DNA of 64,000 nt from Callorhinchus milii (taxonomy: Eukaryota), in contig NW_024704753.1 of assembly GCF_018977255.1 (NCBI RefSeq), forward strand, positions 16,802,001 through 16,866,000. Reading direction: 5' to 3'. Positions 13,501-56,405 of this stretch are shown one piece after another. The position numbers and the translations under genes were made by a program. How positions within the stretch are numbered: the first letter of the stretch is position 1; each line of letters begins with the position of its first letter. The notes beneath the pieces are model-generated. The model made no database searches, was not told where the DNA came from, and saw only the letters and a list, made by a program, of their open reading frames with translations.

Positions 13501-15784
13501 CAAATGTATGCACTGCTTCCAAGCAAGTGATAGCATTGCCCTCTATTGGCCAGATACACATGTATCACTTCAATAATAATAATCATAATAATAATCCTTG
13601 CATTTGATATAGCGCCTGATCACGTCGTCGAGACGTCTCAACGAGCTTCATAGGATATACTGTAAAGCGGATCGACTGCGTATTTTGTGGGAGAGACCGG
13701 TGGCAGCCAGTTTTATTTGGGAGATTGTCAACCGGGGCACGAGGAGAAGCTCCCTCCTCTTTTCGAATGGTGCCACGGGAATCTCTAACATCCATCCGCC
13801 GGACGGGACTTCGGTTTAATATCTCATCGAAAGGAAGGCACCGCCGTCAATGCAAAGCCCCCTCCCCACAGCACTGCATCGTATAATGATATTATATTGC
13901 TTCCCGACAGCCGCGCGGGTTTGGCCATTGCTGAACTGTGTGAACCCACGAACCTTCTGACGCACGAGGCTGGAGTGCTAACTCGGCGCCCGGCTGACGC
14001 CCGACACAATTCTGTGTAAAACGACTCGCAAAGTACCCCAGGACAGGCAACGGTGAGGCCGTCCGTCTTACCTGTGAACGAAGATACGGTGCCGTGAGCT
14101 GATGACGGCAAGCGTAGAAACACTCTATGTTTGTGAATGATTCGGTTTGTCTTTGTGTCTGCCTCTGCCGTTCCGTTCCAAGTGACTCAAACCCGCGTGG
14201 AGGGCTCCATTTAAGTGCAAGTTGTTGTGGTGGATCCTCATTTCCTGTCTACAGTTGCAGATCTTTTGTGCTTTACAATCGCTGTAAAGCAAGAGATGGG
14301 TCTACTTGCCGAGCAGGAACCAGGATCCTTCCTTTTTTTTTTACACACAACACAGATTTAAATGTATTGTTGCTGCCGGGTAAGCGTGCCCACCCTCGAG
14401 CGTTGGGCTGGGAGCATCCCAGACAGAAATGTTTCATAAAACTCGAGATGGAAAACCCATTCAGTCCTGGAGTTTTACCCAATTGCAGTCCCTCAATAAC
14501 TTCTCGCACTTTTAGCCATTATTGCAGGGGTATCGAGCGTCGGCTTCATCTTCCGTGAGATGGAAAGGGAAGTTTGTTGATATATTTCACCTGTTGCCTC
14601 AGTTTCCGACTCATTCAGAGTGGTATCCCTTACATATTCCTTATACCCTTTGGGTCACCTGCCATCTTGCTGCCTTTTTGTCTCAATGGTAGGGTTAGTC
14701 CTCCGACATTGAAATCTACAAGCAGTTCACCTGCTTTATCTCTGCTCTCACAGAATCTTGTTTTTGACTGTACCATTTTTAGTTCCCTTCTACTGTGCTT
14801 TAGTGGGCACTGTGCACTGGTAGACTGAAATCATTCACGTGTGCGTTCATTCTCCATCACTCTCTTCTCCAGATCACATTGTGCGATTGAAGCTTTCAGC
14901 ATCTTTGGGTTTGGCTGTAAGATGATTATGTGACTTTGGGCATTGCTCATGATAAGCCTCGAAGTTATCAGCCCCATCTCTCAGGCCTCAAGTGATAAAG
15001 GAAATGGCTCAGGTGCTTCTCGCTTCCAGAAATTGCATTCCACAGTACTAAAAACATAGGCCACCACCTTATAAAAATATGTGGTCCCAACCTCTGTACC
15101 TTGGGCAAAGGAAATTCCAAGAGATCTGGTTACCCTTCCTGTCAATGTGTGAGCCCTGTTGAATGGCAACTGTCCAACATCATGTATGTTTCGCACCTTC
15201 AGATCTAAATCTTTTCGCCCACAAATATAGTCAATTCACTTCACAGTATATTCTGTGAAGCGCTTTGAAGCGTCCAGAAGACGTGAAAAATGACGCGACA
15301 TCAAATGCAAGGATTATTATTATTATTATTATTAAATCACCTACCGACCGGTAAGGCGTCAGGCAAGAAGTTTCCTCCTACACATACTGATGTCTATGTT
15401 CGGAACTTCTCATTTCATAAAACAATAATCAGATTTCCAAACTTATTAACTAAAATAATTTGTTTTGCAATTTACACTGGTATAAATCTTTCAGGCTGAA
15501 TTTTTATTTGAAAGAAATGTGTACAGGACAAGTGAAAAGTATAATGTAGTTGCAAATACCAATTTACATTTTGAACAACTAAAATACAAGTCATTTAACC
15601 TATTGTTTTCAGCTCAGTTAAATACTGCAATACTCTCAATCTATTACAACACATCTGTAAACATTTCTTGTATTATAGTTTGACTTTCATGCACAGGAGT
15701 TCTCCTTCAATGAATTTCATTAAAAATAAGTTGCCATTTTCACAAATAGTTTTATTAATTATAATTTTGCCAAGACTTGGGACA

Positions 15785-16665
15785 AATCCCAGAGGCAGTA
15801 GGTTTATGGAAAAAGTCATCCTCAAAATACAAGATGGTCAATAGAACCTTTTGAGGAAACGCTTTGAAGGCTGCAGGCCAAAATTCCAGAGGAGGAGGAG
15901 TTATGGAAAAAAAATGCCTCCAGTCTCGGGAAGATCGCCAAAAGTAACATTTGAGGAAATGTTTTGCAGGCTGCACGGCAGAATTTCAGGAGGAGGAGAT
16001 ATGGAAAAAATTATCTTTAAGCTCCAATATTGCCAAAAGAAATGCTATATTATGGAAGAATTGCTTTCCAGGATAGCATTCCAGAGGAGGAGGAGTTATG
16101 GAATAAAAAATCTTCAGTCTTTTTGGAGAAAATGTTTTTTCTAGTATAATTTCTCGTAGGGGATATTGAAAAAGTTGTCTTCAAGCTCGATTGCCAATGA
16201 TTTACTACATTTGGAAGAAATAAATTCCAGAGGAGGAGGCGTTATGGAAAAAAGGATCCTCAAAGTCTGAGAAAGATTGTTAGATCTCTTTGTAGAAATG
16301 TTATACAGAATGCAAAAAAAATGCATTTGTGTTTTTTGGAGGAATTGCTTCCTACTATAATTTCCAGAGGAGGAGGAAATATGGAAAAAATCATCTTCTA
16401 GTCTCTCAGACTCGGAAAAAACTCCTCTGTTGGAGGAAGAAGATTGCCAGCTAGAATTCCGGAGGAGGAGGTTATGGAAAAGTGATCTTCAAGTCTGACT
16501 GTTAGAATAAAATGGTATCTAAACAGAAATACTTTCCAGGATGCAGGTCACAGTTCTCGAGGAGATTATTTTTATTTCTGCAAGCTTACACAGGAAAGTG
16601 GTATTTAATTTTTTGAAGCAAATTCCTCCACAAGTGTTGAATTACAGAGGAGCAGATTCTAAAAA
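15785..16665. repeat. Degenerate tandem array (spacing about 95-145 bp) with core TTCCA-GAGGAGGAGGAGTTA-TGGAA
   Basis: Clear cores at 15787, 15884, 15984, 16079, 16225, 16362, 16457; degenerate ones near 16150, 16553, 16641. Cores are followed by an A-run and ATC(T/C)TC and mostly preceded by a TG(G)A(A/G)GAA-like motif. Confidence 0.9.
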
Positions 16666-16956
16666 AACAGAGCAAGAATCTGGGATCCTTAAACAATGTT
16701 TTAACAGTGGTCTTGTTTTGTTCAACACAAATTTACAACTCTCATGGCTCAGTAGAAGCGTGATTTTGATTGGGGAAAAATGAATGTCTCTTCACAATAT
16801 TTTCAAGATGGCTACGATGGTCCACAAGTACCATCAGAAAAAAATCCCCACCAGGAAAAGTACAGGTTTGTGAGCATTACAATACGGCATCCCACTCCGC
16901 CACCCTCACACCCCCCCCCCCCACACACACACACAAAATACCACATTTAATCAGTT

Positions 16957-18510
16957 TTATGCATTTTGTAGGTTACTCTTAGGTCGAAGTGTGGAATCTG
17001 CTTCATCTAGTAAACCGAGATAATTTTCCAGCAATGGGGGATCCAGTCTTATTGAGGTGGACCTGTAAATTAAATAGATCATTAGACATGACTACAATAC
17101 TTAACATCTCGTAAACCGTTTATCGTTTCATCTTTATATCAGTTAATCTGAAACGATGCTAAATTACACTTTGTCCAGATTCAGTATTTCATAAGATTCT
17201 GCGCATTTCTACTTTCCATGTTTGACACATGATCCCAGCAATACAATATAATCTGGGTTCCTGGGCAGGAGTTTGCGGTTGATTCCGAACTCTTCAGTGG
17301 TGCGTTAGCTGGTAGAGAGCGATAAGAATAATAATCCTTGCATTTGACATCGCGTTTTTCACGTCTTCTCGACGTCTCAAAGTGCTTCACAGAATAGACT
17401 GTAAAGTGAGTATGTTTGTGGGTGAAATGCGGCAGCCGATTGCGCACAGCAGCGTCCCCACAAACCGCCGTGGGTCGAAGTGGCCAATCTATTATTTTTT
17501 TTTGAGGGATTATTATCGGCGACGAGGAGACCATCCGAGCCCAGGAACTATGCGTTCCAAGTTTTTCCACGAATCAAGCAATCACCGAGAGCCATCCTTT
17601 CAGACCCCAAATTTCAGTTAAGTCACACCAAGGCTCCAAGACTTCAATATTAACCGATTAACTCTCCCGTCGACTCTGGTAACCGTTAGCCCAGCCGTGC
17701 GCAACTGCCTGCCGCGCGTCGCCCACCAAGTACGGTCCAATCCGCTCGGCAATGTATCCTGGGAGGCGCTTTGAGGCGCCTCGAAGGCGCGATGAGACGC
17801 TATGGTCAAACGCGGGGATTATTATTATCATTATTAATATTGTTATTCTTTGTGAAGCACTCCGTGAGACAATCAGGCGCCACAAACCCACCAGCTTCGG
17901 TGTCGGCCGGGCCGGGCCGTCGTTTCCGAGCGGGAACCGGTCCAGGGCGTCCGTCCGTCCGTCGAGGCACGCGCTGGAAGTCAAAAGACGGATGGCTTAA
18001 CGACCGACCATTTTACCCTCTCCCCCCACCCCACCCTTACCCCACCCACACGCCCCGGTTCACCGCACCCGAGCGAGTATCCCCCGTGAAGCGCTTCGGG
18101 GCTTCTCGAAGACGTGATAAGGATTATTGTTATTTAAACACCATTCGAGCCTCGTTACAAACCCAATGCGCCATCTCTTTCATAACTTTACCTCATGGAT
18201 GGATGGACGTCTAAGAGAACTCACTGCAGGGAGGTTAGTGAAAACCAAGTCACCCCCCCCACCCCCCACGCAGCCGCGGCCCCTTCGAACAGCCGTTGCT
18301 CCTCTCGCTCGCGCTCAGAAAACCGTTGAAACCGTTGAGCGCCTCAGACCGGGACCACGTGGGGCCGTCCGAGCGCGCGAGCTCCGTTTTCAAATCCCAA
18401 CGCTTCTTTTCGGTTCGGCTTTCGCACGCGCGCACGTGTGTGTGTGCGCGCGCTCAAGCCTCACCTTACCTCTCCGTCGTCCTGAAGCGATAATTGGTTA
18501 TGAACGCCAT
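16957..18510 (-). other. Candidate small-ORF gene or lncRNA divergent from NICN1 (14-48 aa depending on acceptor)
   Basis: TATA box, then a single strong-Kozak ATG (acgATGG, 18510), donor GAG|GTAAGG at 18470, acceptor ctaat...tttacag| at 17062. Gives MAFITNYRFRTTERSTSIRLDPPLLENYLGLLDEADSTLRPKSNLQNA*. No homolog recognised. Confidence 0.45.
17327..17520 (-). mobile_element. 5'-truncated copy of the same SINE
   Basis: AATAATCCTTGCATTTGA...CTCAAAGTGCTTCACAG...GGCAGCCGATTGCGCACAGC. Confidence 0.85.
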
Positions 18511-18840
18511 CGTATTATTATCGGGACGTGACTGCAGCGCTGAGCTTCGCGTTACCGCCACACGCGTGGCCGCGCCTCTCCAGCCTTTCCCTCCAGGACC
18601 ACGCCAGCTGAAGCACGTGACGGCGGCTCTCGCTGCCTTTTATAGCCGGCTCCGAGCACGTGACACCGCCGAGCCGGTGACGCCACCGCGCGCGGCGGCG
18701 CACTCGCGCACGGGCGCACCCTGGCCTCCACGCGCCGCTCCGGACGCGTGACGCGTCGCGTGACGCGTGACGCGACGCGTCGCCATGGCCGCCCCCCCCC
18801 CCCTCGCGCGCTCTTCCCTTTCAAACCGACACTGATCTTC
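17680..18840. promoter_or_regulatory. CpG island / bidirectional promoter (NICN1 on +, unidentified transcript on -)
   Basis: Dense CpG; minus-strand TATAAAAG at 18644-18637; GTCACGTG E-boxes (CACGTG at 18614-19 and 18657-62); tandem GTGACGCG motifs 18742-18783; outward-facing splice donors at 18470 (-) and 18904 (+). Confidence 0.75.
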
Positions 18841-19489
18841 AAGTCGCTCTAAACCGAAGAAACCGTTAATTTTAAAATTCAGAACATTAAAATTCCACCT
18901 TAAGGTACATATATTTATCTCTATATACCCACATTACATATTACATATCATCTCCATATCTATTTATGTATTCTATATCTATATCGACATTTTGATATAT
19001 TGTATATTATCCATTTATATCTGTGATATATTATATTATTATATATTGGTTCTATATATATATATATATATATATATATTAACTGTGAGGGGCTTTGCTG
19101 GTTTAGATACCGCTTGGATTCTCTGCCTCTGGTTACCTGGCAGTGGGGGGGGGTAGGAATCCGGTTGTTAGTCGGTTGGCGGATCGCTTTCCAGAGGGTA
19201 ATAATCCCTCCCAAAAAAATATAATAATAATAATAATAATAATGACGATAATGGTAATTCGCGCGCTCCACAACACAAGCGTTCGCGGGTCGCCGAGGGG
19301 CGCGCCACCGGCCGCCGCCCTTCGCCCGCGCAAAAAAAATTACGCGGTCGATTCGCTTTGCGGTGTGTATTCTGCGAAGTCCGATGGCGATTATTAGTGG
19401 GTGATGGTTCTTGCATTTGCGGCAGCGCCTTTATCGTGTCTCAACGCGCCTCACGGAATGTGCTGTCGTACTTCGTTGTCATATATAAT

Positions 19490-19823: not shown

Positions 19824-22800
19824 ATGACAGAAGATAGCGTCGCTTGTGTGATTAAAACACCAGTCCCGCTCCAAATTGGGGATATAAAATCCAACTCCGG
19901 GAAGCCTGGTGTTTTTGCAATTGATATCTCTTTTCCACGTGAAAGGGGAATTAATGTAAGTAATATATTGTTTAGCCTCTTACAGTGGGACTGTTGTGGA
20001 TTTATATCAGCAGATTAGGCTTTAAATCAGAGTACTATATCTAAGGACAATTTGGATTTTTAGAAAATAGATTCTCTTTGCTGTTTGCTCCGATTTCTAC
20101 TGCTGTTGGAACCGATGGCCTTTGATTTCCCACAGTATAAATCAGGCATTTCTTTCAATAACATATTGAAATATAATCAATGTATACCGCCACTGAGTGG
20201 GCAGTGGGCCTTTATTTGTAACCCGATACATCAGTGTAAAGAAGAGCCAAGTATATGGCTTCTCCTTTCCAAGAGAGAGACAGAAAGTGATTCACCCAGT
20301 TTCTCGCAAAGTTACTAGTTTTGAAGTATACATCACTTGTAACAGATCATTTGTGTGTGGAGATCTAACTGAGGTTCAATAAACTACAAGGAATTTAGAA
20401 CCAAACACTTGATTTGTTTTCCACCAGGCGTACTGCTCCCAAGACCCCTTTTCTCACTTCTCCTTTTACACCTATTTGATGGCTAAGTAATAATGAAGCA
20501 ATTTCACACAAATCGAGACAAGATTTTAATCTGCTATAGTAGGACATTTTTGATCATCTCAATTTATTTTACTATTCAAAAATATCAGTGTTCAATTTTT
20601 TAAAATTGTTTTTCTAATATTGTGTAGCTCTAGTTCTGCCTTTCCATTATATGCTCATTGATGCTCTTAATCCTGATTTTCAATCACTCTTCACTAACAG
20701 CTTCGGGCCATCACGTTTAAGAATTACTACACTGCTTTCTTAACTATACGTATTCACCGACCTGTTCTCTCAGAGTCTGACAAAAAAACGGCAAAATGGA
20801 ATACCTGTACAAGGAATTTACCTCTGATGCCCAATCCCCATGCTGAGAAGGGATCTCAGGACTACTTTTCTGTTCATAAACATCAGGTCAGGCTTCATTC
20901 CAAGAATATGTGTATCAATGATGAATATCCTATGTCTGAAAAGGCTGGATAAACTGAATCTTTTTTCTTTGGAGCTCACATGGTTCAAAGGGGATATGAT
21001 AGCATATAAGATGATGGAAGATTTAAATAAGATGAACAGGGAAAGATTATTTGCAGTGGACAGGAGGTCTAGACCTAGAGGACAGAGTTTTAAAATCATA
21101 ACTGGGATCTCCAGAACAAAGATTAAGAGGAATTTTTTCAAACAGAGAGTGGTTGGAGTGTGGCATTCTCTGCCTCAGTCTGTTGTTGACTGTGTGTACA
21201 TTCTGCTGCAACCGTGTGTACATTCAAAAAAAGGATGGACATATGGTTGAGGGAGAATAAAGTTGAGGGATATGGGGAAAAGGGTGGAATATGGAACTAG
21301 ATAAGCCGAATGGTCTGTTTGGGGGCTATGGATCTCCAAGTGCTTAATATTGAGGAGGTCTGACTAACTCTGAAGTATTGTATACAATGCAGCATATTAG
21401 CATGCTTTACTATAAACACAACTTTTCTTATAATGTGTTTGCACTGTAATCCCTATTCACTGTGCAATGGCTTGTACAGAATGGTGTGAGTGGTTCAGAT
21501 GCTGCTAGGCACTGCCATCACAAAACCTAAACTAGGTGAGAAGAGTTTACTGTTTCAGCAATGGAACTCGTGGTATTTTGAAGGCTCTTGTGACTGACAT
21601 AAAATTAAATTGCCTGACGGATTAAATTGATCATTATCTACAGATGCTGTGCGAACCAAATGGGGTGACAGCAATGCGCCTGATTCTTCGACAACCATCT
21701 CCAGTTTGGCTAAGTTTTTCAGTAGAAGACATCAAACTATATGAATGTGACCAGGATGTAAGTACAGTTGAACCCCCTTATAAAATATTTCATTAAAACA
21801 GCTGTTATTTTACAACATAATTGACTTTTACTCACCCAGAAAATTCTGCTCCATGGGAATTTCACCAGCGCAAGACAAAATAGCTGACTTCCGGATCACC
21901 AGGTCATGCTGGTGTGACTTGAAACCGCAGGATTAGCAGTGGCTTGTTGACCGACGTTGAATTTTTGGCTTCCCACATCCGGCCAAAAGTTTCTTCTTTC
22001 GGCATGCATGATGCATGCAGAACACTGACTGAAGATCACACTCCATAAAAGCACTTGTTGGGATGTTATAGGCCCCAAAACAACAACAAATTACATTTGT
22101 ATAACACCTTTCACGTTGGGAGGACGTCCCAACCATGTTATAACAAGGCTCCACTGTTTTTAAAACTACCCATTTAAACAGCAGTGGTGTGGACCTGCCA
22201 GTACTGAATCACTTGCGCTATCTTACTTTATATCTCAGGGACTGGATTTTGACATGTCAGCATAACATTAGTTGCAAAGGTGTCACTATTTTCAATTTCT
22301 TGCAGGTCAAAGCAGAGGGATCTATTTTATTGGTGATGTCAGCCTCCAGTTATTTCTAACATTTTTTTTCCCACTCAACCAATTTATGTTCAACCATTTG
22401 TTTTATAGAATCTACAGAGAGGAAATGGATCATGGCTGTCCCATCTTACTCCACTGGAGAGACCTTTGAACTTAAATGTTGTGAGTTTGACTTCACTGAG
22501 TTTCACAGCTGACTGTTGTATTTCTGCACCTAGGGAATTTTTTCTTTGGTGATTTTTATTCGGCTTTTTTTTAAACAATTTTTGTGCTAGGACGGATAAT
22601 TAGATACTCATGGGCAGGTTTTATGCTGTTTGAGAAGCAGCAGCTGGAATAAATCGAAGACTGGGCAGGGCAGGAATTACCTGCAACCGCATCATTGAGG
22701 ATACATTATGGATTATGGTGCACGAGTGCTTTTCAAATTCAGTAATGTTTTTTATTGTAATGTGGCATATTGCATGACAGTGCTAACATACAGAGGTATT

Positions 22801-28010: not shown

Positions 28011-28341
28011 GTGGAGTCCTGTAGCTCAGGGGTTAGAGCACTCGCTTTGTAAGCGAGAGACCTGAGTTCAATTCCAGGCAGAGGGCGAAACCTTGGGCAA
28101 GTTTCCTTACTCCACACAGAGCCTAATAATAATCCTCCAAAACCAAAAACAATAATAAATTGGTCATTTTCAATCTACGACTGTTTGTGGGACAGTGCTG
28201 TGCGCAATTGGCTGCCGCGTTCGCCCACAAATATACAGTCAATTCACTTTACAGTGTGTTCTGTGAAGCGCTTCGGGACGTCCTCCTGACATGAAAAGCG
28301 CTATATCAAATGCGAGGATTATTATTATTATTATTATTATT
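28011..28341 (+). mobile_element. tRNA-derived Deu-domain SINE (full length) just upstream of the AMT promoter
   Basis: GTGGAGTCCTGTAGCTCAGGGGTTAGAGC...GAGTTCAATTCC...core...(ATT)n. Confidence 0.92.
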
Positions 28342-28629: not shown

Positions 28630-31600
28630 ATGCTGAGGGTCGGTGTGGGGCTCAGGCTGGGGCTCCGGTCGGGGGCCGGAGTCCGTCCTCAGGCAAGATT
28701 CAGCCACGGCGGATCGGTGAGTGACCGTGTCCCCGGGGGGGGAGGGGGGGGGGGGGAGGTGTACCGTGACCGCACAGCCAAGGCATTGCTGTGGAGGGGA
28801 GGCGTTGGGTTGGGTTGGCGAGGGGTGGGTTGGGTTGGCGGGGGGTGGGTTGGGTTGGCGGGGGGGGTTGGGTTGGGTTGGCGGGGGGGGGGGTGGGGGT
28901 GGGTTGGGTTGGCGGGGTGGGGGTGGGTTGGGGTTGGGTTGGGTTGGCGGGGGGGGCGGGGTGTGTGTTGGGTTGGCGGTGGGGTGGGGTGGGTTGGGTT
29001 GGGTTGGCGGGGGACGGCGGGTGTGTGTTGGGTTGGCGGTGGGGTGGGTTGGGTTGGGTTGGCGGGGGTGGGTTGGGTTGGGTTGGTGGGGGGGTGGGTT
29101 GGGTTGGGTTGGCGAGGGGTGGGTTGGGGTGGGGTGGGTTGGGTTGGGTTGGCGGGGGACGGAGGGGGGTGTGTTGGGTTGGCGGTGGGGTGGGTTGGGT
29201 TGGGTTGGCGGGGGGTGGGTTGGGTTGGGTTGGCGAGGGGTGGGTTGGGGTGGGTTGGGTTGGGTTGGGTTGGCGGGGGGGACGGCGGGGGGTTGTGTTG
29301 GGTTGGCGGGGGTTGGGTTGGGTTGGCGGGGGGGACGGCGGGGGGTGTGTGTTGACACGGGCGCATTGGCAGCCCGTCACGACTGGACCATAATAAAAGG
29401 ACGCCGGCGATGCATTGGCGTCTTGTGCTACGACCGGAGACGTTGGCTGGAGACGTTGCACTAAAGCCCAAAAAATGAGAGTAATTGGGTCGCTCGATCC
29501 ACGGCGACGCTGCTGCGCGCAATTGGCTGCCGCTTTTCGCCCACAGAGTACACAGTCAATTCGCTTTGCAGTATATCCTGTGAAGCAGGTTGTGACGTCT
29601 TGAAGACGTGATAAAGCTCCATATCAGATGCAAGGATTATTATCATCATCATCATCATCATCAGACAGGCTCTTCGCAAACCAGCAGGAGGAATTGGCAG
29701 CCTGGGGGGGATTATTAGATTAGATTGGGTGGTGGGGGGGGGGGTAGAGGGATTATCAAACCATCCCTCTGAAGTATGAAGATCCTCATCTTGCTTGTAT
29801 CTGTCGGGCTACCGGTGCTGCAGCATTTTGGGTTGATTGACGATGAAAAAATAATTGAGTTGCAGACTTTTCGCAGTTAGGTGGCTACGTCCGCTCTCCC
29901 CTTTGTTTAACTACTGTGCACAGGACCGGCAGGAGTCTTACAGTTCTGAAGCGGCTTCTATACGGTACAGAGGTCGCTCTTTTTTTTTGGTTTGGTTTAA
30001 ATTACACTTGTTACCCCTTTCTCGCAGCATCCTATGTCAGGTTGTTAACCTTTTTTTTTGTACATTCTTGTTTTTGTGTTCTTGTTGGCAATCCTGTACA
30101 TTATAACGTTTCAGACTTTTGTTTTAAAAATGAACTTTAAATTCAAGGTCGCAGTATGTTGAACTCTGGAGTAACTTTGCAACTGTAATATTTTCAGTTG
30201 ATTTCTAATCTGCTTGATCTACTTGATTTATGGTGCCTGAGCTACATGATTACATTACTGCAGTCACTAAAAGGTATAGGTTGGCTATGCAATGCAAAAT
30301 CTGTCAGATGTTTTAAGATGGTGCGAATGTGTTCGGCAGTGATATCCATTTCTGTTTTTTGGTTCAGGAATCTCTCAGGAAGACCCCTCTCTATGACTTC
30401 CATCGGAGCCAGGAGGCTCGGATGGTAGATTTTGCAGGATGGAGTATGCCGGTTCAGTATAAAGACAGTCACATTGCTTCACACTTACACACAAGGGAGC
30501 ACTGTTCACTGTTTGATGTGTCTCACATGTTGCAGGTAAGGCCACAACTTAATACAGACTGACTGATAAACTTGGCCCTTACCCTGGAATCCATACATTT
30601 TACCTCCATTTCCTTACTGCCGACTCTCTATCTGTTCAGTTAGAGGTATTTTTTGGGAGGTGTAGTTTTATGTGGCCCCTTGACACTTTCACCAGTGTAA
30701 TATTTAGGTATTTGTTTTTAAAAAAAACATGCTAACACCTACACTTGTTTTAAGTTCCTCTTGAACTTACCTTGACAGTGCTGATTCTATATATGCCCTG
30801 TCGTGTATTTTTAAAACATATACGTAAGCTCATTCAGATCTGTATTTCAGTCTAAGGTGGTGGGGAAAGACCGAGTGAAGTTCATGGAGAGTTTGATCGT
30901 TGGGGACATTGCTGAGCTCAAAGAGAATCAAGTGAGTAAAGTCTTCTATAAGAGGTGCATTCTTCCTATTCTGACCGTCTACTCTTCGTGTTAATGATGG
31001 TGCTCTTCAAGCCGATTAAAACAAATCTTTATTTATCAATTTAAATTCTGGTAGGTTTTGCTATAAAGTACAAATACTGCGCTTTTTAAAATTTAACTTC
31101 AAGCTTTTTTAATCAAGGCCTGTAGTCAGCAAACGATGGCATTCAAAAAGAGTCGATGAGACGAATCAAGAAACAATAGTTAGGTGATTTTAAAGGCTTG
31201 TAGATTGTAGGAAGAGGGCGAGACTGAGTGAAGTGAGGTGTTCCAGTCTTGTGGTCCTGGGAAAAAATGAGTTAGCTGAAGTTAGCAATCAGTTTTGATT
31301 TTAAGTTAGCGATGATGAATGAGGGATAAAATCTATGTTAAATTATTGTCACATAGTGGGGACGTTGTGTGGTTAAATACGGCACTATTTTCCATAGAAT
31401 ATTTATGCCTCTCTGCTTTTCATGACCTCACCAGTCATCCTTTGGCCAGCGATTGGGGGATGTTGGATGCATCTAGCTATTCTGTGTAGAATATCTTCTC
31501 TTACTGGTTTGCAAATAAGGGTCAGTGAATTATGTATTCTCTTGTGACTCTTTGCTTGCTTTGTTTCAGGGCATGCTGTCCCTCCTTACGAATGAGAAGG

Positions 31601-36744: not shown

Positions 36745-48225
<11,481 letters not shown>

Positions 48226-51079: not shown

Positions 51080-51496
51080 CTGCAATAAAGCGAAAATGTT
51101 TAATCATAATCTGAATTTAACTGTTGCTTTACCATTGTATCATAGATTTATTCACTCTTAATTAAATCAACCGGTTGTTAGTCGATGGGAATCAAACCCA
51201 GGTCCTCTCGCTTGTGAGGGGAGTGCTCTAACCACTGAGCTACAGGACTCGAAAGTGCTATACCTGGTACTTCAGTTTGACCCAATGATCATGTAGCATA
51301 TGAGGATAAATGGCTGGATCGTTTCTGTCCCAGATGCTGAAGCTGGATAAACGAACAAAGATATGATCTATTATAATAAGGATAATTGATGAGTTTGAGG
51401 TGGTAAGTACTTGGGGAACGAAAATCACCTACCAGGTACGTTTTTCAACCTTCCGGCGTCTCGACATCCTGCCTTCAGTTAGTAGTATGCAAATAT

Positions 51497-51615
51497 GTTA
51501 GTGCTGGGAGAGTGATATGTGGAGTTAGTGCCCGGAGAGTGATATGTGGAGTTAGTGCTGGGAGAGTGATATGTGGAGTTAGTGCTGGGAGAGTGATATG
51601 TGGAGTTAGTGCTGG
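51497..51615 (+). repeat. 27-bp tandem repeat, about 4.4 copies
   Basis: Unit GTTAGTGCTGGGAGAGTGATATGTGGA. Confidence 0.92.
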
Positions 51616-53389
51616 ATGATTGACATCCTATCAGTTATGGATGAGAGATATGTTGAGTTGCGAGCAAGAGCAAGCAACCCATAGTGACCCAACAAGTCCA
51701 TGGTGACAGGGTAGTGACAAGTGGGCATTGGCAGGGACAACCATAGGTGCTGCCCTCTGCCCAATTCCTACATAACCCTGATAATTCAGCAGCCCTCTTT
51801 TTCCTAGATGCCCAATACAGCATTGACAGAGAAAGTTTCTTAAATAAACAAAGCATTTCTTCCTCTTGAAAGCAGAGGCCTCTTGCGATAGTTCTATAGG
51901 TGAGACCTTCCCTCTTGTCCATTCTGTGAACTAAGGTAGTGAATGTTGGCTCCTGGTTAAACCTAATCCACGCACTCAGCCGCTACGCCCCAAAACTCTG
52001 GAATACTCTCCTTTGATCCCTCCTCTTTTTCCAAGTCCCACCTGAAAACCTTCCTTTTCAACCATGCTTACTGTTACCTCCCCCCAGCTCCGCCACTGTT
52101 AAGTGCTCTGAGACACTACCCTGTGAGTGCGAGTTGCTGTCGATACAGTCCTAGTGGAATCATTGGATAAAAAGAAGCTCTTAGCCCAACACCCTGATTC
52201 CCATTGTATTGGCTGATCAGGACTCCCTCCATCTGTGAGGCTCGTGATAACATTTATCTAGCAAGCTATGGTTGTGAACCATTGGCACCGATTACGTGAC
52301 ACAACCCTGCTCTTTATAGCCAGAATTTCTGTAGCAAAGAAATGTCTCGTATTCTTTAATATGACAGCAGTATAACTAAACCTAATTTCTTCACAAAAAC
52401 TTAACAAATCCTTGCATAATTAGATGAGTTTAATTAGAGTATTAATAATACATACGGAATATATACAATGGAATATGTATAAACATGTGGTTGGTTGATT
52501 TATTTATATTAAAAAAAAAGTATAAGTCTCTGCTGCTCAACACTGACCACAGTGGTTCAGAGACGCTGTCCTACATAAAGGACGCTATGGAAATATAAGT
52601 CATTATTGATGATCCGATATGACCCGGACACTAGAACATGCCTTTAAATTCTAACTACTGTATAAGATAGCTTGTCAAACGAAATGTACAGCCAATCAAT
52701 TCAACTTGAATTTCTAAAGTCTGTGAAAGCATATGTTGCTGCCTGTGTAGTGCGTAAGGCTCCACATCCCTTTTAGGCTGAGTGCAAGCAAAATGAATAT
52801 GATTATGTTTTAAGTTGACAATGTTTTTCTCTCCACGCTGCTATTAACATCATCAAACTGGTCCTTTAGTAAGACTCCAAAAACTGCTCCTTTGGTACAG
52901 GAGTGAAGAGCAGACACCTGGCTCATTTTTCTCCTCCTACTCCCACAGCATAGACTAATTATCAATGACTAATTCTACACAGACCAAGGATCAAATCTAC
53001 AACCTTCTTGTCTATGTGGCTCAATTGTATTGGTCCATTTGACCCCTGAGCTACGAAATATAAGTATTTTGAACCCATCAATTTAGACGAAAGGAAAAGC
53101 AAATTCTGTTAACATCTTAGTCCAAGAAGAAGTCAAAATCTACACCAAAATAAAAAATTCCAACAAATTTTGTTTTTTTAAAAAAAAAATTAGGGAAACC
53201 CTCAATTGGACAAAGTTCAGTTTGCCCCTCTTGTAAAAAAAAAAGTTTCCTTTTCCTGGACAATGTCAATGGGCAAATCACAATCTGATGGTGGGTGGAG
53301 TGTGTTCCAATAAGACACTCATAACTTGGCTCGGTGCAATAAGTCATGGCTTTGGGAAAAAACAGTTCAAGTTCTCATTCATCCAATAC

Positions 53390-55429
53390 TTAGTTAACTT
53401 CTAAATTCTCCGAGTTTTCAGACAGCTGTTGTAGTTGCCTGAGGTCTTTCTGGATGTTTGGCCCATCTTCCAGATCTTCGTACAGTGACCTAACAATCTC
53501 CAGCTTTCTGTAATCCTCGCGCTTCACAAGACTCCGCACCACTTGTAGGCATCTCTCCTTTAGTGTATAAACTAAGAAAAAAGCACAAGCCTGTCTGAAC
53601 GTCATTGGACAAAAAAAGGATTGAAGTGTTTATACATCATTAACGTCCATCTGATAACATCTCATCAACAAAGCAGCGTTTCTTAACCCCCCCAATCATC
53701 ACTCATCAATGTACACTGGGTTCAAAGTCCTAATGTGGGTGGCGCTTGAACCCACAACCTTCATATTCCAAGGTGAATGTTACCTGGTTCACCAGGCTGA
53801 TAACCAAGCAATATATCTGAGGAGAGGTTGGAGAAGTTGAGACTTTCCATTGGAGCAGAGACGATTGAGGGTGTGATATGTTACAGGTGTTTAAGATAAT
53901 AAAGGCTTTAAAATAATTTAAATGGTGGAAAACCTCTTTCTGCACAGTAGGGGAATTGAAGACAAAAGGATATGAATTCAAACTCGTAGCTTGGGGGGGT
54001 AAAGGAATAGTTTTGAAGAACTCCCAGAGAATTAGAAAAGTACAAGGAAGGTTATTAGAGGGTAAAAAACAGGGAATTGGGATGGATAGCAAACACCAAC
54101 AATATGGCCACTGGCATCTTGCTGTATTGCACATTTCTATGGTTTTACGGAAATGATTGCCGTGAAATGGCTTCCTGATCCTCTGTAACTCGGGAGGACT
54201 ACTGTAACAATACCACAACACCTCTGCAGGTAATTTATAGTGGGGCAGGTTCAACACAGAACATGTTTGAATCATTAAAAGGTACCAAAGCTCCTATGCG
54301 TGCGCAACAGGTGTCACGAGGCACTGACACCCCTGACGTGAAAGGGGCCATACAGATGTAATCTTGTTGTTGTTGTTGTTGACACCCACACAGATCTTAA
54401 GTAGCATCAAACACAAGTCTGCCCATTGACGTGTGGCAGTGTTTTACCTGGAATAGTGATGTTGACCATTATGTAGCTCGGCACCCCGTTTTCATCCACT
54501 TGCCCGGGAGGCGACATAAAGATCTCCTGCCCGTTTCCAAGCAGTCGATCTTCGTGGACTGCGTCTCGGAAGATCCACGGATGGCCTGGAAGGGGAAAGC
54601 GAGCAAGAGGCCCTTTTGAGCGTTATCCAGCTTCCCCCCACCCCACCCCACCCCCCCAAAAAAATCAAACCCCGGGGACTGTGCCCTCCGGAATCTCCGG
54701 TCCGTTCCAGAACAACTCCGGCCCCTGTTCTCTCCCCCCCCCACCCCCCGCGTGCGGCCAGTCCATCATTTCCCCGCCCTCGCTTGACCCGCAGTAATAT
54801 TTCTCCCGAGGCCTCCTGAGGGACTTGTCCCATCCCATCATCGTCATCATCATCAATAATAATAATAATAACCAATTCACGCGCGACGGTGTATCCCGCG
54901 AAGCGCTGTGAGGCGTCTCGGAAGATGCGATTATTATTATTATTATTACTATTATTACTGAGGAAGGTTTTCAGCCACTTGGGCCCTCTGCTCTGTCCTC
55001 CCCTCCAACACCCCCCCAAAAAAAAACTTGTTGTTGTTGTGGTTGTCGTGTGAGGGAAGCACCACTTTCCCTGGAACCCTCTGGTCTATCAGCTGTTGTT
55101 GTTCTCCCCCTTTTGGGGTAAAGGGGCAGAGAAAGGGGGGGGGGGAGGGAAAGGGGGGGGAAGGGAGAGGGGGGGGGGAAGGGAGGGGGGGAGGGGGGGG
55201 ACTAACTGAGAGCGCGGCCCCTGAACCCACCCATGAAGGTGTTCATCCTGCGGCCTGTGCGGGCCACCATGTCGGGGTAAGGCACCGGGTCGCCGCTGTA
55301 GTTGATCCAGATGGGGCTGACGGACCGCCGGCTCCGGTTGCAGAAGATGAGGAAGGACCGCTGGGGGTTGCCGACCGAGCGCAGCCGAGGCTGGAGCCGG
55401 GCCTCGGCCTCCATCACATTCTCCGGCAT
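53390..55429 (-). CDS. VHL: von Hippel-Lindau tumour suppressor (short pVHL19-like form), 3 exons, 172 aa
   Basis: Exons 55429-55231, 54585-54448, 53571-53390; GT-AG, phase-1 junctions as in human, 519 nt. Motifs [55 protein letters not shown] (BC box), [13 protein letters not shown]. Minus-strand AATAAA at 52499-52504. Confidence 0.96.
53815..54140 (+). mobile_element. Degenerate CR1 LINE 3' fragment in VHL intron 2 (antisense to VHL)
   Basis: GAGGAGAGGTTGGAGAAGTTGAGACTTTCCATTGGAGCAGAGACGATTGAGGG..GATATG, typical of the CR1 ORF2 end. Confidence 0.7.
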
Positions 55430-55439
55430 AGCGCGGGCG

Positions 55440-55760
55440 GCGGGTAAACAACTGGGCCTCAGGCCCCGCCCACAACTGGGCCTCAGGCCCCGCCCCCTCG
55501 GGCCGTTCCCCACAATTCAAACCCGAAGCCGTTGCTTTCACGCGCAGGACGACCCCGCGCGAAACCCCGCCCAATCGCCCGCCCCGACGTCACGCGCAGG
55601 CCGCCCGCGCCCCCGCCCCCCCCCCTCGTTCTCCTCTCCCATTGGTTAGTTACCATCACCCCGCCCCAGGCTTCAGAAATGATTGGCTCTCTCGCCTGGC
55701 AATCAGACGAGGAAAACCCGCCCCCCCCCCAACCCCCCCCGCCCCGCCCACCAAAACCGT
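55440..55760 (-). promoter_or_regulatory. VHL CpG-island promoter (CCAAT boxes, GC boxes, 24-bp tandem duplication)
   Basis: CCAAT/ATTGG at about 55571, 55641, 55682; several CCCGCCC; GACGTCA near 55587; ACAACTGGGCCTCAGGCCCCGCCC twice at 55448-55495. Confidence 0.6.
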
Positions 55761-55970: not shown

Positions 55971-56405
55971 CCCCCCCCCCCCCCCCACTCCCCTTCCCCC
56001 CACTCCCCTCCCCCCCCCCTCCCCCCCACTCCCCTCCCCCCCACTCCCCTCCCCCCCCACTCCCCTCCCCCCCCACTCCCCTCCCCCCACTCCCCTCCCC
56101 CCCCACTCCCCTCCCCCCCACTCCCTCCCCCCACTCCCTCCCCCCACTCCCCTCCCCCCACTCCCCTCCCCCCCACTCCCTCCCCCCACTCCCCTCCCCC
56201 ACTCCCCTCCCCCCCACTCCCTCCCCCCCACTCCCCTCCCCCCACTCCCCTCCCCCACCCACTCCCCTCCCCCCACTCCTCTCCCCCCACCCCCCCTCCC
56301 CCCTCCCCCCCCCACTCCCCTCCCCCCCACTCCCCTCCCCCCCCCACTCCCCTCCCCCCCCCCCACTCCCCTCCCCCCCACTCCCCCCCACTCCCCTCCC
56401 CTCCC
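55971..56405 (+). repeat. C-rich (CCCCCCACTCCCCT)n repeat upstream of VHL
   Basis: About 430 bp; the source of the spurious poly-Pro and poly-Gly ORFs. Confidence 0.95.

Follow-up and report, generated by a model that had tools for sequence, protein, structure and literature searches.

In Xist repeat A, some eight conserved cores, each ~25 nt long and spaced by U-rich sequence, lie at the 5′ position of a long noncoding RNA (lncRNA). NORAD is a transcript of ancient tandem units that have diverged except for short motifs in a fixed order, a U-rich stretch among them (10.1101/033423). The ALOX15 DICE (hnRNP K/PCBP1) lies in the 3′ UTR of an enzyme mRNA, where a CU-rich sequence of 19 nt is repeated tenfold (PMC9701828). 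At the DNA level, EWS-WT1 binds TCC repeats, which also match the ZNF263 motif (PMC11358472).

Here, we describe an array of repeated units in the genome of Callorhinchus milii, analyzed within a window of 64,000 nt (G000:C12:16802001-16866000; positions below are those of the window unless a locus is named). The array is a genuine repeat of a constrained motif, carried by a spliced transcript and apparently not described before. It resembles Xist repeat A in the number and length of its cores and in its U-rich spacers, whereas the core sequence is different, the position is 3′ rather than 5′, and no fold is supported. The original prediction had drawn analogies to NORAD and DICE, neither of which extends to membership. 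Like NORAD, the array is made of long-established, transcribed tandem units whose conserved motifs follow a set order; however, NORAD units are ~300 nt long, against 67 to 137 nt here, and NORAD stems carry supporting substitutions, of which the array stems have none (10.1101/033423). The array has no supported stem, and no Pumilio element was found on either strand of 15740-16700 (consensus from 10.1101/033423). Like DICE, it is CU-rich, multicopy and located towards the 3′ end of its transcript, but its cores are 25 to 30 nt with long spacers (spacing 67 to 137 nt) and mostly CC doublets, in a transcript without a constrained ORF (PMC9701828). A DICE word has no match in the array region. 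Runs of (TCC)n, three to four triplets long, resemble TCC-repeat sites (PMC11358472); however, the runs in the array are fixed between T-tract/CCATA and GGAATT-like blocks within one exon. Neither the U12 branch-site word nor that of the METTL16 nonamer had a match in the array region, and one IRE-like word (16435) lies outside the cores. Rfam covariance models returned no match at E values up to 1 over 15345-18900, in agreement with the predicted lack of a recognized family. No description of the transcript or motif was found in the literature searched, with most subscription papers outside the search, and both the motif words and NICN1 were absent from the supplement of the elephant shark genome paper.

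Transcript structure and genomic context

The stretch was contained in 14 runs from four studies, none recorded as RNA, and contigs from X1, X2, X4 and X11 were examined; such contigs give neither RNA ends nor levels. X2 and X4 contigs (two studies) carry joints 17060/17890 and 17973/18470, whose CT..AC ends are those of GT-AG introns on the minus strand. The transcribed strand is therefore minus, a point that the original prediction had left unsettled. One 1475-letter X2 contig runs from 18582 through both joints to 15784 and covers the array, placing it in the last exon of a three-exon transcript; X4 covers the array as well, to 15635, but in separate contigs. Neither joint is present in X11 or X1 contigs, and X1 was not counted as evidence of transcription because it lacks a joint and covers flanking DNA. 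The predicted minus-strand transcription from a TATA promoter is thus borne out by spliced contigs, with the TATA box as the putative promoter (Table 1). The box is flanked by CACGTG at 18614-18619 and 18657-18662 and lies within a CpG island common to NICN1 (CpG observed/expected 1.39); the spliced contigs start at 18582 and 18607. Tandem TGACGCG-type repeats occur at 18743-18783 in the promoter common to NICN1 and the minus-strand transcript, and X2/X4 contigs ending at 18792-18803 probably mark the NICN1 5′ end.

As predicted, the array is flanked by minus-strand poly(A) signals (AATAAA at 16576, 15756 and 15508). The X2 contig reads across the first of these, and the inclusion or exclusion of the array by alternative polyadenylation, as put forward in the original prediction, is hypothetical on the evidence of these contigs. 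The signal directly after unit 7 is likely the proximal poly(A) signal, for which the end of the X2 contig at 15784 is a weak hint; an X4 contig continues past it, to 15635. Further minus-strand ATTAAA words lie at 16951 and 16609.

The array transcript lies head-to-head with NICN1. To its right are an aminomethyltransferase and a ubiquitin hydrolase domain and, to its left (among 60 frames scanned), a minus-strand kinase with a C1 domain and a 6-phosphofructo-2-kinase, which we take to be AMT, BAP1, PRKCD and PFKFB4, respectively. Frame 55089-55589 (-) presumably resembles VHL; Pfam gave no match for it. Outside 15345-18900, Rfam gave tRNA-like matches only, which are weak (31 to 40 bits; 28019-28081, 37731-37802, 41296-41365 and 51179-51249) and probably heads of an abundant SINE. 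Ordinary-looking tandem arrays occupy 28804-29333 (~5 bp), 36890-37718 (8/16), 51497-51659 (27) and 55971-56405 (14/15).

Repeat units and RNA folding

The array is present where it was predicted, with seven good units, one decayed and one doubtful unit under a sequence-only profile (Table 1). This profile was trained on the seven good units, which score 44 to 66 bits with it; the decayed unit was outside that set. Seven to ten units had been proposed: seven stand, an eighth is decayed, the ninth is doubtful (E = 0.11), and the profile found no tenth, leaving a count of eight, perhaps nine. A 15-mer with ≤3 mismatches matched 15 times in the window against 2.6 expected, and 7 of these 15 matches fall inside the array. 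On the RNA strand, a unit comprises a GAAGAU-like block, U5-9, CCAUA, two to three bases and (NCC)3-4, followed by a GGAAUU-like block, a variable spacer and a UUYCYCC-like block. The lengths of the U-tract and spacers are free to vary among units, and the predicted loop is 13 or 15 nt. Core-to-core spacings (93, 137, 79, 67, 97, 98 and 97 nt; one of seven divisible by 3) keep no reading frame, as had been claimed. A variant at 15788 (unit 7) in X2 and X11 contigs agrees with the other units.

Table 1. Features of the array transcript, its neighborhood and the second locus
Feature	Coordinates	Strand	Evidence and remarks
NICN1, first coding stretch	19824..19955	+	100% identical to Callorhinchus milii nicolin-1; head-to-head with array transcript
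TATA box of minus-strand transcript	18638..18644	-	Sequence; putative promoter
Exon 1	18470..18607	-	Joint 17973/18470 in X2 and X4, not X11; donor GTAAGG
Exon 2 (82 nt)	17892..17973	-	Spliced contigs
Exon 3, terminal, containing the whole array	15635..17062	-	Joint 17060/17890; spliced X2 contig to 15784, separate X4 contig to 15635; 3′ limit given is that of contig coverage
Spliced 60-codon first ORF, exons 1-3	17003..18510	-	Stops ~500 nt before array
Doubtful remnant unit	16633..16666	-	8.6 bits, E = 0.11; upstream of AATAAA at 16576
Upstream candidate poly(A) signal AATAAA	16571..16576	-	Sequence
Unit 1	16430..16495	-	13-nt loop; mismatch at inner stem pair
Unit 2	16335..16403	-	Profile match
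Unit 3	16210..16265	-	Profile match
Decayed unit 3b	16122..16187	-	23.7 bits; not used in training
Unit 4	16051..16118	-	Core 25/25 identical to unit 6; flanks 28/67
Unit 5	15949..16023	-	13-nt loop; mismatch at middle stem pair
Unit 6	15849..15925	-	Profile match
Unit 7	15761..15827	-	Most diverged among good units
AATAAA directly after unit 7	15751..15756	-	Sequence
Distal AATAAA	15503..15508	-	Sequence
Second locus, two motif copies	G000:C12:18872658-18874560 (L048:4658-6560)	+	Profile; 2 Mb from array

Each unit had been proposed to form a hairpin, and this was not supported. On the transcribed strand, the stem has five Watson-Crick pairs in four of seven units, a G-U pair in one and a mismatch in two, and no unit is altered on both sides, so that compensatory change is absent. 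With 100-nt flanks, the probability of the middle stem pair is 0.00 to 0.07 in all seven units; it reaches 0.90 to 0.95 in two of them only with 10-nt flanks. RNAalifold on ten units gave -0.48 kcal/mol, with compensatory change in none of three pairs, and local folding of the whole exon produced helices that differ from unit to unit. The outer stem suggested for the flanking motifs fared no better, pairing no more than permuted partners did (P = 0.88), and both proposals were rejected. Covariation between the downstream block and the upstream block of the next unit was visible by eye only (P = 0.12 for the RNA strand and 0.20 for its complement) and was also set aside. Folding of the array as a whole gave z = -2.0 on the RNA strand against -4.6 on the opposite strand (20 shuffles each), and two of eight local windows on the RNA strand fell below -2. 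On these folding models, the feature that has been kept is sequence, with no demonstrated structure. Within unit 2, a 5-bp hairpin with a GCAA loop is predicted at 16340-16353 (-) with probability 0.95; a variant at 16347 in X1 and X11 changes the loop to GGAA, which is still of GNRA type.

Second locus and wider searches

A DNA search of the 992-Mb genome and tight patterns (pattern counts being lower bounds) found the array locus alone. A looser pattern gave two off-array matches, within the four found by a reversed control; the case for the first, at C12:18872878, therefore rests on its flanks and on a second copy. In this match the unit continues into both flanks, for a score of 31.1 bits under the window-only model, and the second copy, which was not selected by a pattern, lies 1.65 kb further on the same strand and scores 23.3 bits. 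Scaled to the genome by arithmetic from rough model E values, E is about 1e-4 and 0.04, respectively. Both copies keep the U-tract, CCAUA and CC-triplet blocks; their stem has three pairs or, in a register shifted by one base, four including one G-U. The TATA box nearest to the array and the one nearest to the second-locus copies both have the pyrimidine-rich strand as their sense strand, an agreement with a chance of 1 in 2. The second locus lies between a kringle-and-trypsin gene, presumably MST1, and a class 3 semaphorin.

Patterns designed after the second-locus copies had been seen revealed no third locus, and off-array singles (L036, L052-L056, L059 and L068; ≤13.2 bits) were dropped as chance matches. 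The claim that the array is not a dispersed repeat holds: no dispersed family emerged from the genome DNA search and patterns, and two loci plus chance-level singles do not match a satellite or transposable element. A metagenome scan with the full core found nothing, and looser scans yielded single matches, 57 in metagenomes and 84 in viruses. The 57 metagenome loci, picked by pattern, served as a control: their highest score was 22.8 bits, and no second match was listed for any of them.

Several further features were seen at the second locus. AATAAA occurs ~50 nt after copy 1 (L048:4973), there is a possible splice donor at the 5′ edge of that copy, and an 8-bp-type minisatellite lies between the two copies. 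An exon-like stretch with a clear acceptor and donor lies ~4.4 kb beyond the second copy, in the downstream direction (L049:964-1100, +), and is perhaps part of a putative second-locus transcript.

Alternative explanations

The leading alternative, a serious one although we consider it less likely than not, is that the units are composite DNA sites that the RNA merely crosses. Each would combine an NFAT-type TGGAAAA with GNG triplets for a zinc finger of EGR/WT1/ZNF263 type, forming a homotypic enhancer of NICN1, the neighboring kinase gene or the transcript itself. The original prediction had offered a cluster of NFAT and ETS sites. TTTTCCA, which we take to be an NFAT-type site, is found in six of seven good units, but GAGGAA is not preserved from unit to unit, which leaves the ETS half weak. 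This explanation needs no RNA structure, and none was found; copy 1 at the second locus lies in a CpG island, ~200 bp past a TATA box. That the motif also reads as good DNA sites, and that folding is stronger on the opposite strand than on the transcribed strand, both count against a reading as RNA. Triplet variants are mostly GAG to GCG or GTG; WT1 ZF2 binds GAG slightly better than GCG (PMC5934627), and such variation suits WT1/EGR-type fingers (PMC5934627, PMC11358472). Against DNA sites, block spacings differ by non-helical amounts, and unit 4 breaks GGAAA while its core is still perfect. Moreover, every unit lies within one exon and AATAAA directly follows the last of them, which favors an element read as RNA.

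A neutral, decaying minisatellite whose cores were homogenized by gene conversion around the (GGA)n tract is improbable. The window is rich in simple repeats, and units 5 and 6 have 63% of their flanks in common, so duplication or conversion did take place. However, in the seven good units (gaps counted as mismatches, decayed unit left out) identity reaches 82% over the best 25 alignment columns against 40% over the remainder, and none of 360 simulations of uniform-rate decay matched this difference (largest simulated gap 0.30 against 0.43 observed). The simulations started from one unit and followed a star phylogeny under three settings, with overall identity of 0.53 to 0.58 against 0.51 observed. 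The kept blocks also reach beyond the simple repeat, and the same blocks are kept 2 Mb away where nothing else is alignable, blastn between the loci showing only the motif, interspersed repeats and simple repeats in common. The claim that the core has been kept while the spacers diverged is therefore sustained for these paralogous copies within one genome.

Slightly more improbable still is an mRNA for a 60-residue peptide, in which the array would act in cis from the 3′ UTR as a control element, much as the ALOX15 DICE does. The first ATG, at 18510, is in a strong context and opens 60 codons that end in the last exon. The first ORFs after both TATA boxes (18470-18510, -; L048:4979-5010, +) start with MA and share YRFR in different codons, a likeness given little weight because the Tyr codon is polymorphic at the window locus. 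Conversely, the X2 contig has a 4-nt insertion and the X11 contig a 1-nt deletion in exon 2, and codon 7 (the Tyr of YRFR) is changed in X1 and X2. A protein search found no relatives of the three exon-3 reading frames (the spliced 60-codon ORF is in a different frame) and no homologue of the second-locus ORF, and Pfam gave sub-threshold matches only. The 60-codon ORF is probably not a constrained protein and, given the frameshifting indels, the codon-7 change and the lack of relatives for the exon-3 frames, the minus-strand RNA is probably noncoding. Nor do the spacings or homology searches point to a frameshifted protein-coding exon; the core-versus-rest difference in identity agrees with the prediction that a motif, and not a protein, is constrained.

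MicroRNA decoy or decay-trigger sites (for miR-202-3p, let-7 or another small RNA) are very improbable: miR-202-3p pairs with both conserved core ends (mean -18.7 kcal/mol over nine units, equalled by 5 of 500 shuffled microRNAs), and unit 7 (15787-15815, -) pairs with it at -25.0 kcal/mol through a 6-mer seed and with let-7 at about -23 to -24 kcal/mol with one G-U in the seed, but that 6-mer seed occurs in one of nine units only, let-7 finds a better site in another part of the window, miR-7 places one of nine units within the top 5% of background, none of the three has a seed match in most units, and the GGAAUU and downstream blocks are left unexplained. The let-7, miR-7 and miR-202 sequences were taken from this genome and chosen after the fact; at least 12 let-7 hairpins were found, three of which (L017, L026 and L027) carry A where the mature strand usually begins with U.

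Proposed mechanism and significance

Our preferred but tentative reading, to which we give a little less than even credence, is that the array is a multivalent single-stranded sequence element in a likely lncRNA. Each copy would likely be a docking site for one sequence-specific RNA-binding factor, the copies having presumably arisen by tandem duplication, after which selection would have kept the blocks and the spacers would have drifted. With many copies, one RNA could bind several molecules of the factor, and might then either buffer it from other sites, for which the second-locus copies are candidates, or control its own fate. Our guess at the partner is a pyrimidine-reading KH or RRM protein. 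A PCBP-type binder fits poorly because KH1 of PCBP1 prefers C-tetrads over C-triplets (PMC3367169), and the core is made up mostly of CC doublets.

A more specific proposal, which we regard as distinctly unlikely at present, is that the lncRNA from the promoter shared with NICN1 titrates a factor that reads the same element at the second transcription unit, in an arrangement possibly ancient among jawed vertebrates. If true, a decoy and its natural target would have been found side by side, in a system akin to NORAD but directed at another protein. Short motifs in lncRNAs can be retained between shark and mammals (PMC7798263).

A readable functional unit is rare among lncRNAs; here, a core of 25 to 30 nt occurs eightfold in one exon and is echoed elsewhere. 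Since the core is constrained, repeated and echoed at a second locus, a single pull-down with bait and mutant could name the partner. Should the reading as DNA sites hold, the array would be a tidy and more ordinary composite enhancer. If instead the decoy reading holds, NORAD would gain a counterpart that has a new binder and occurs in a slowly evolving vertebrate genome, and the motif could then be used to look for related elements in other vertebrates.
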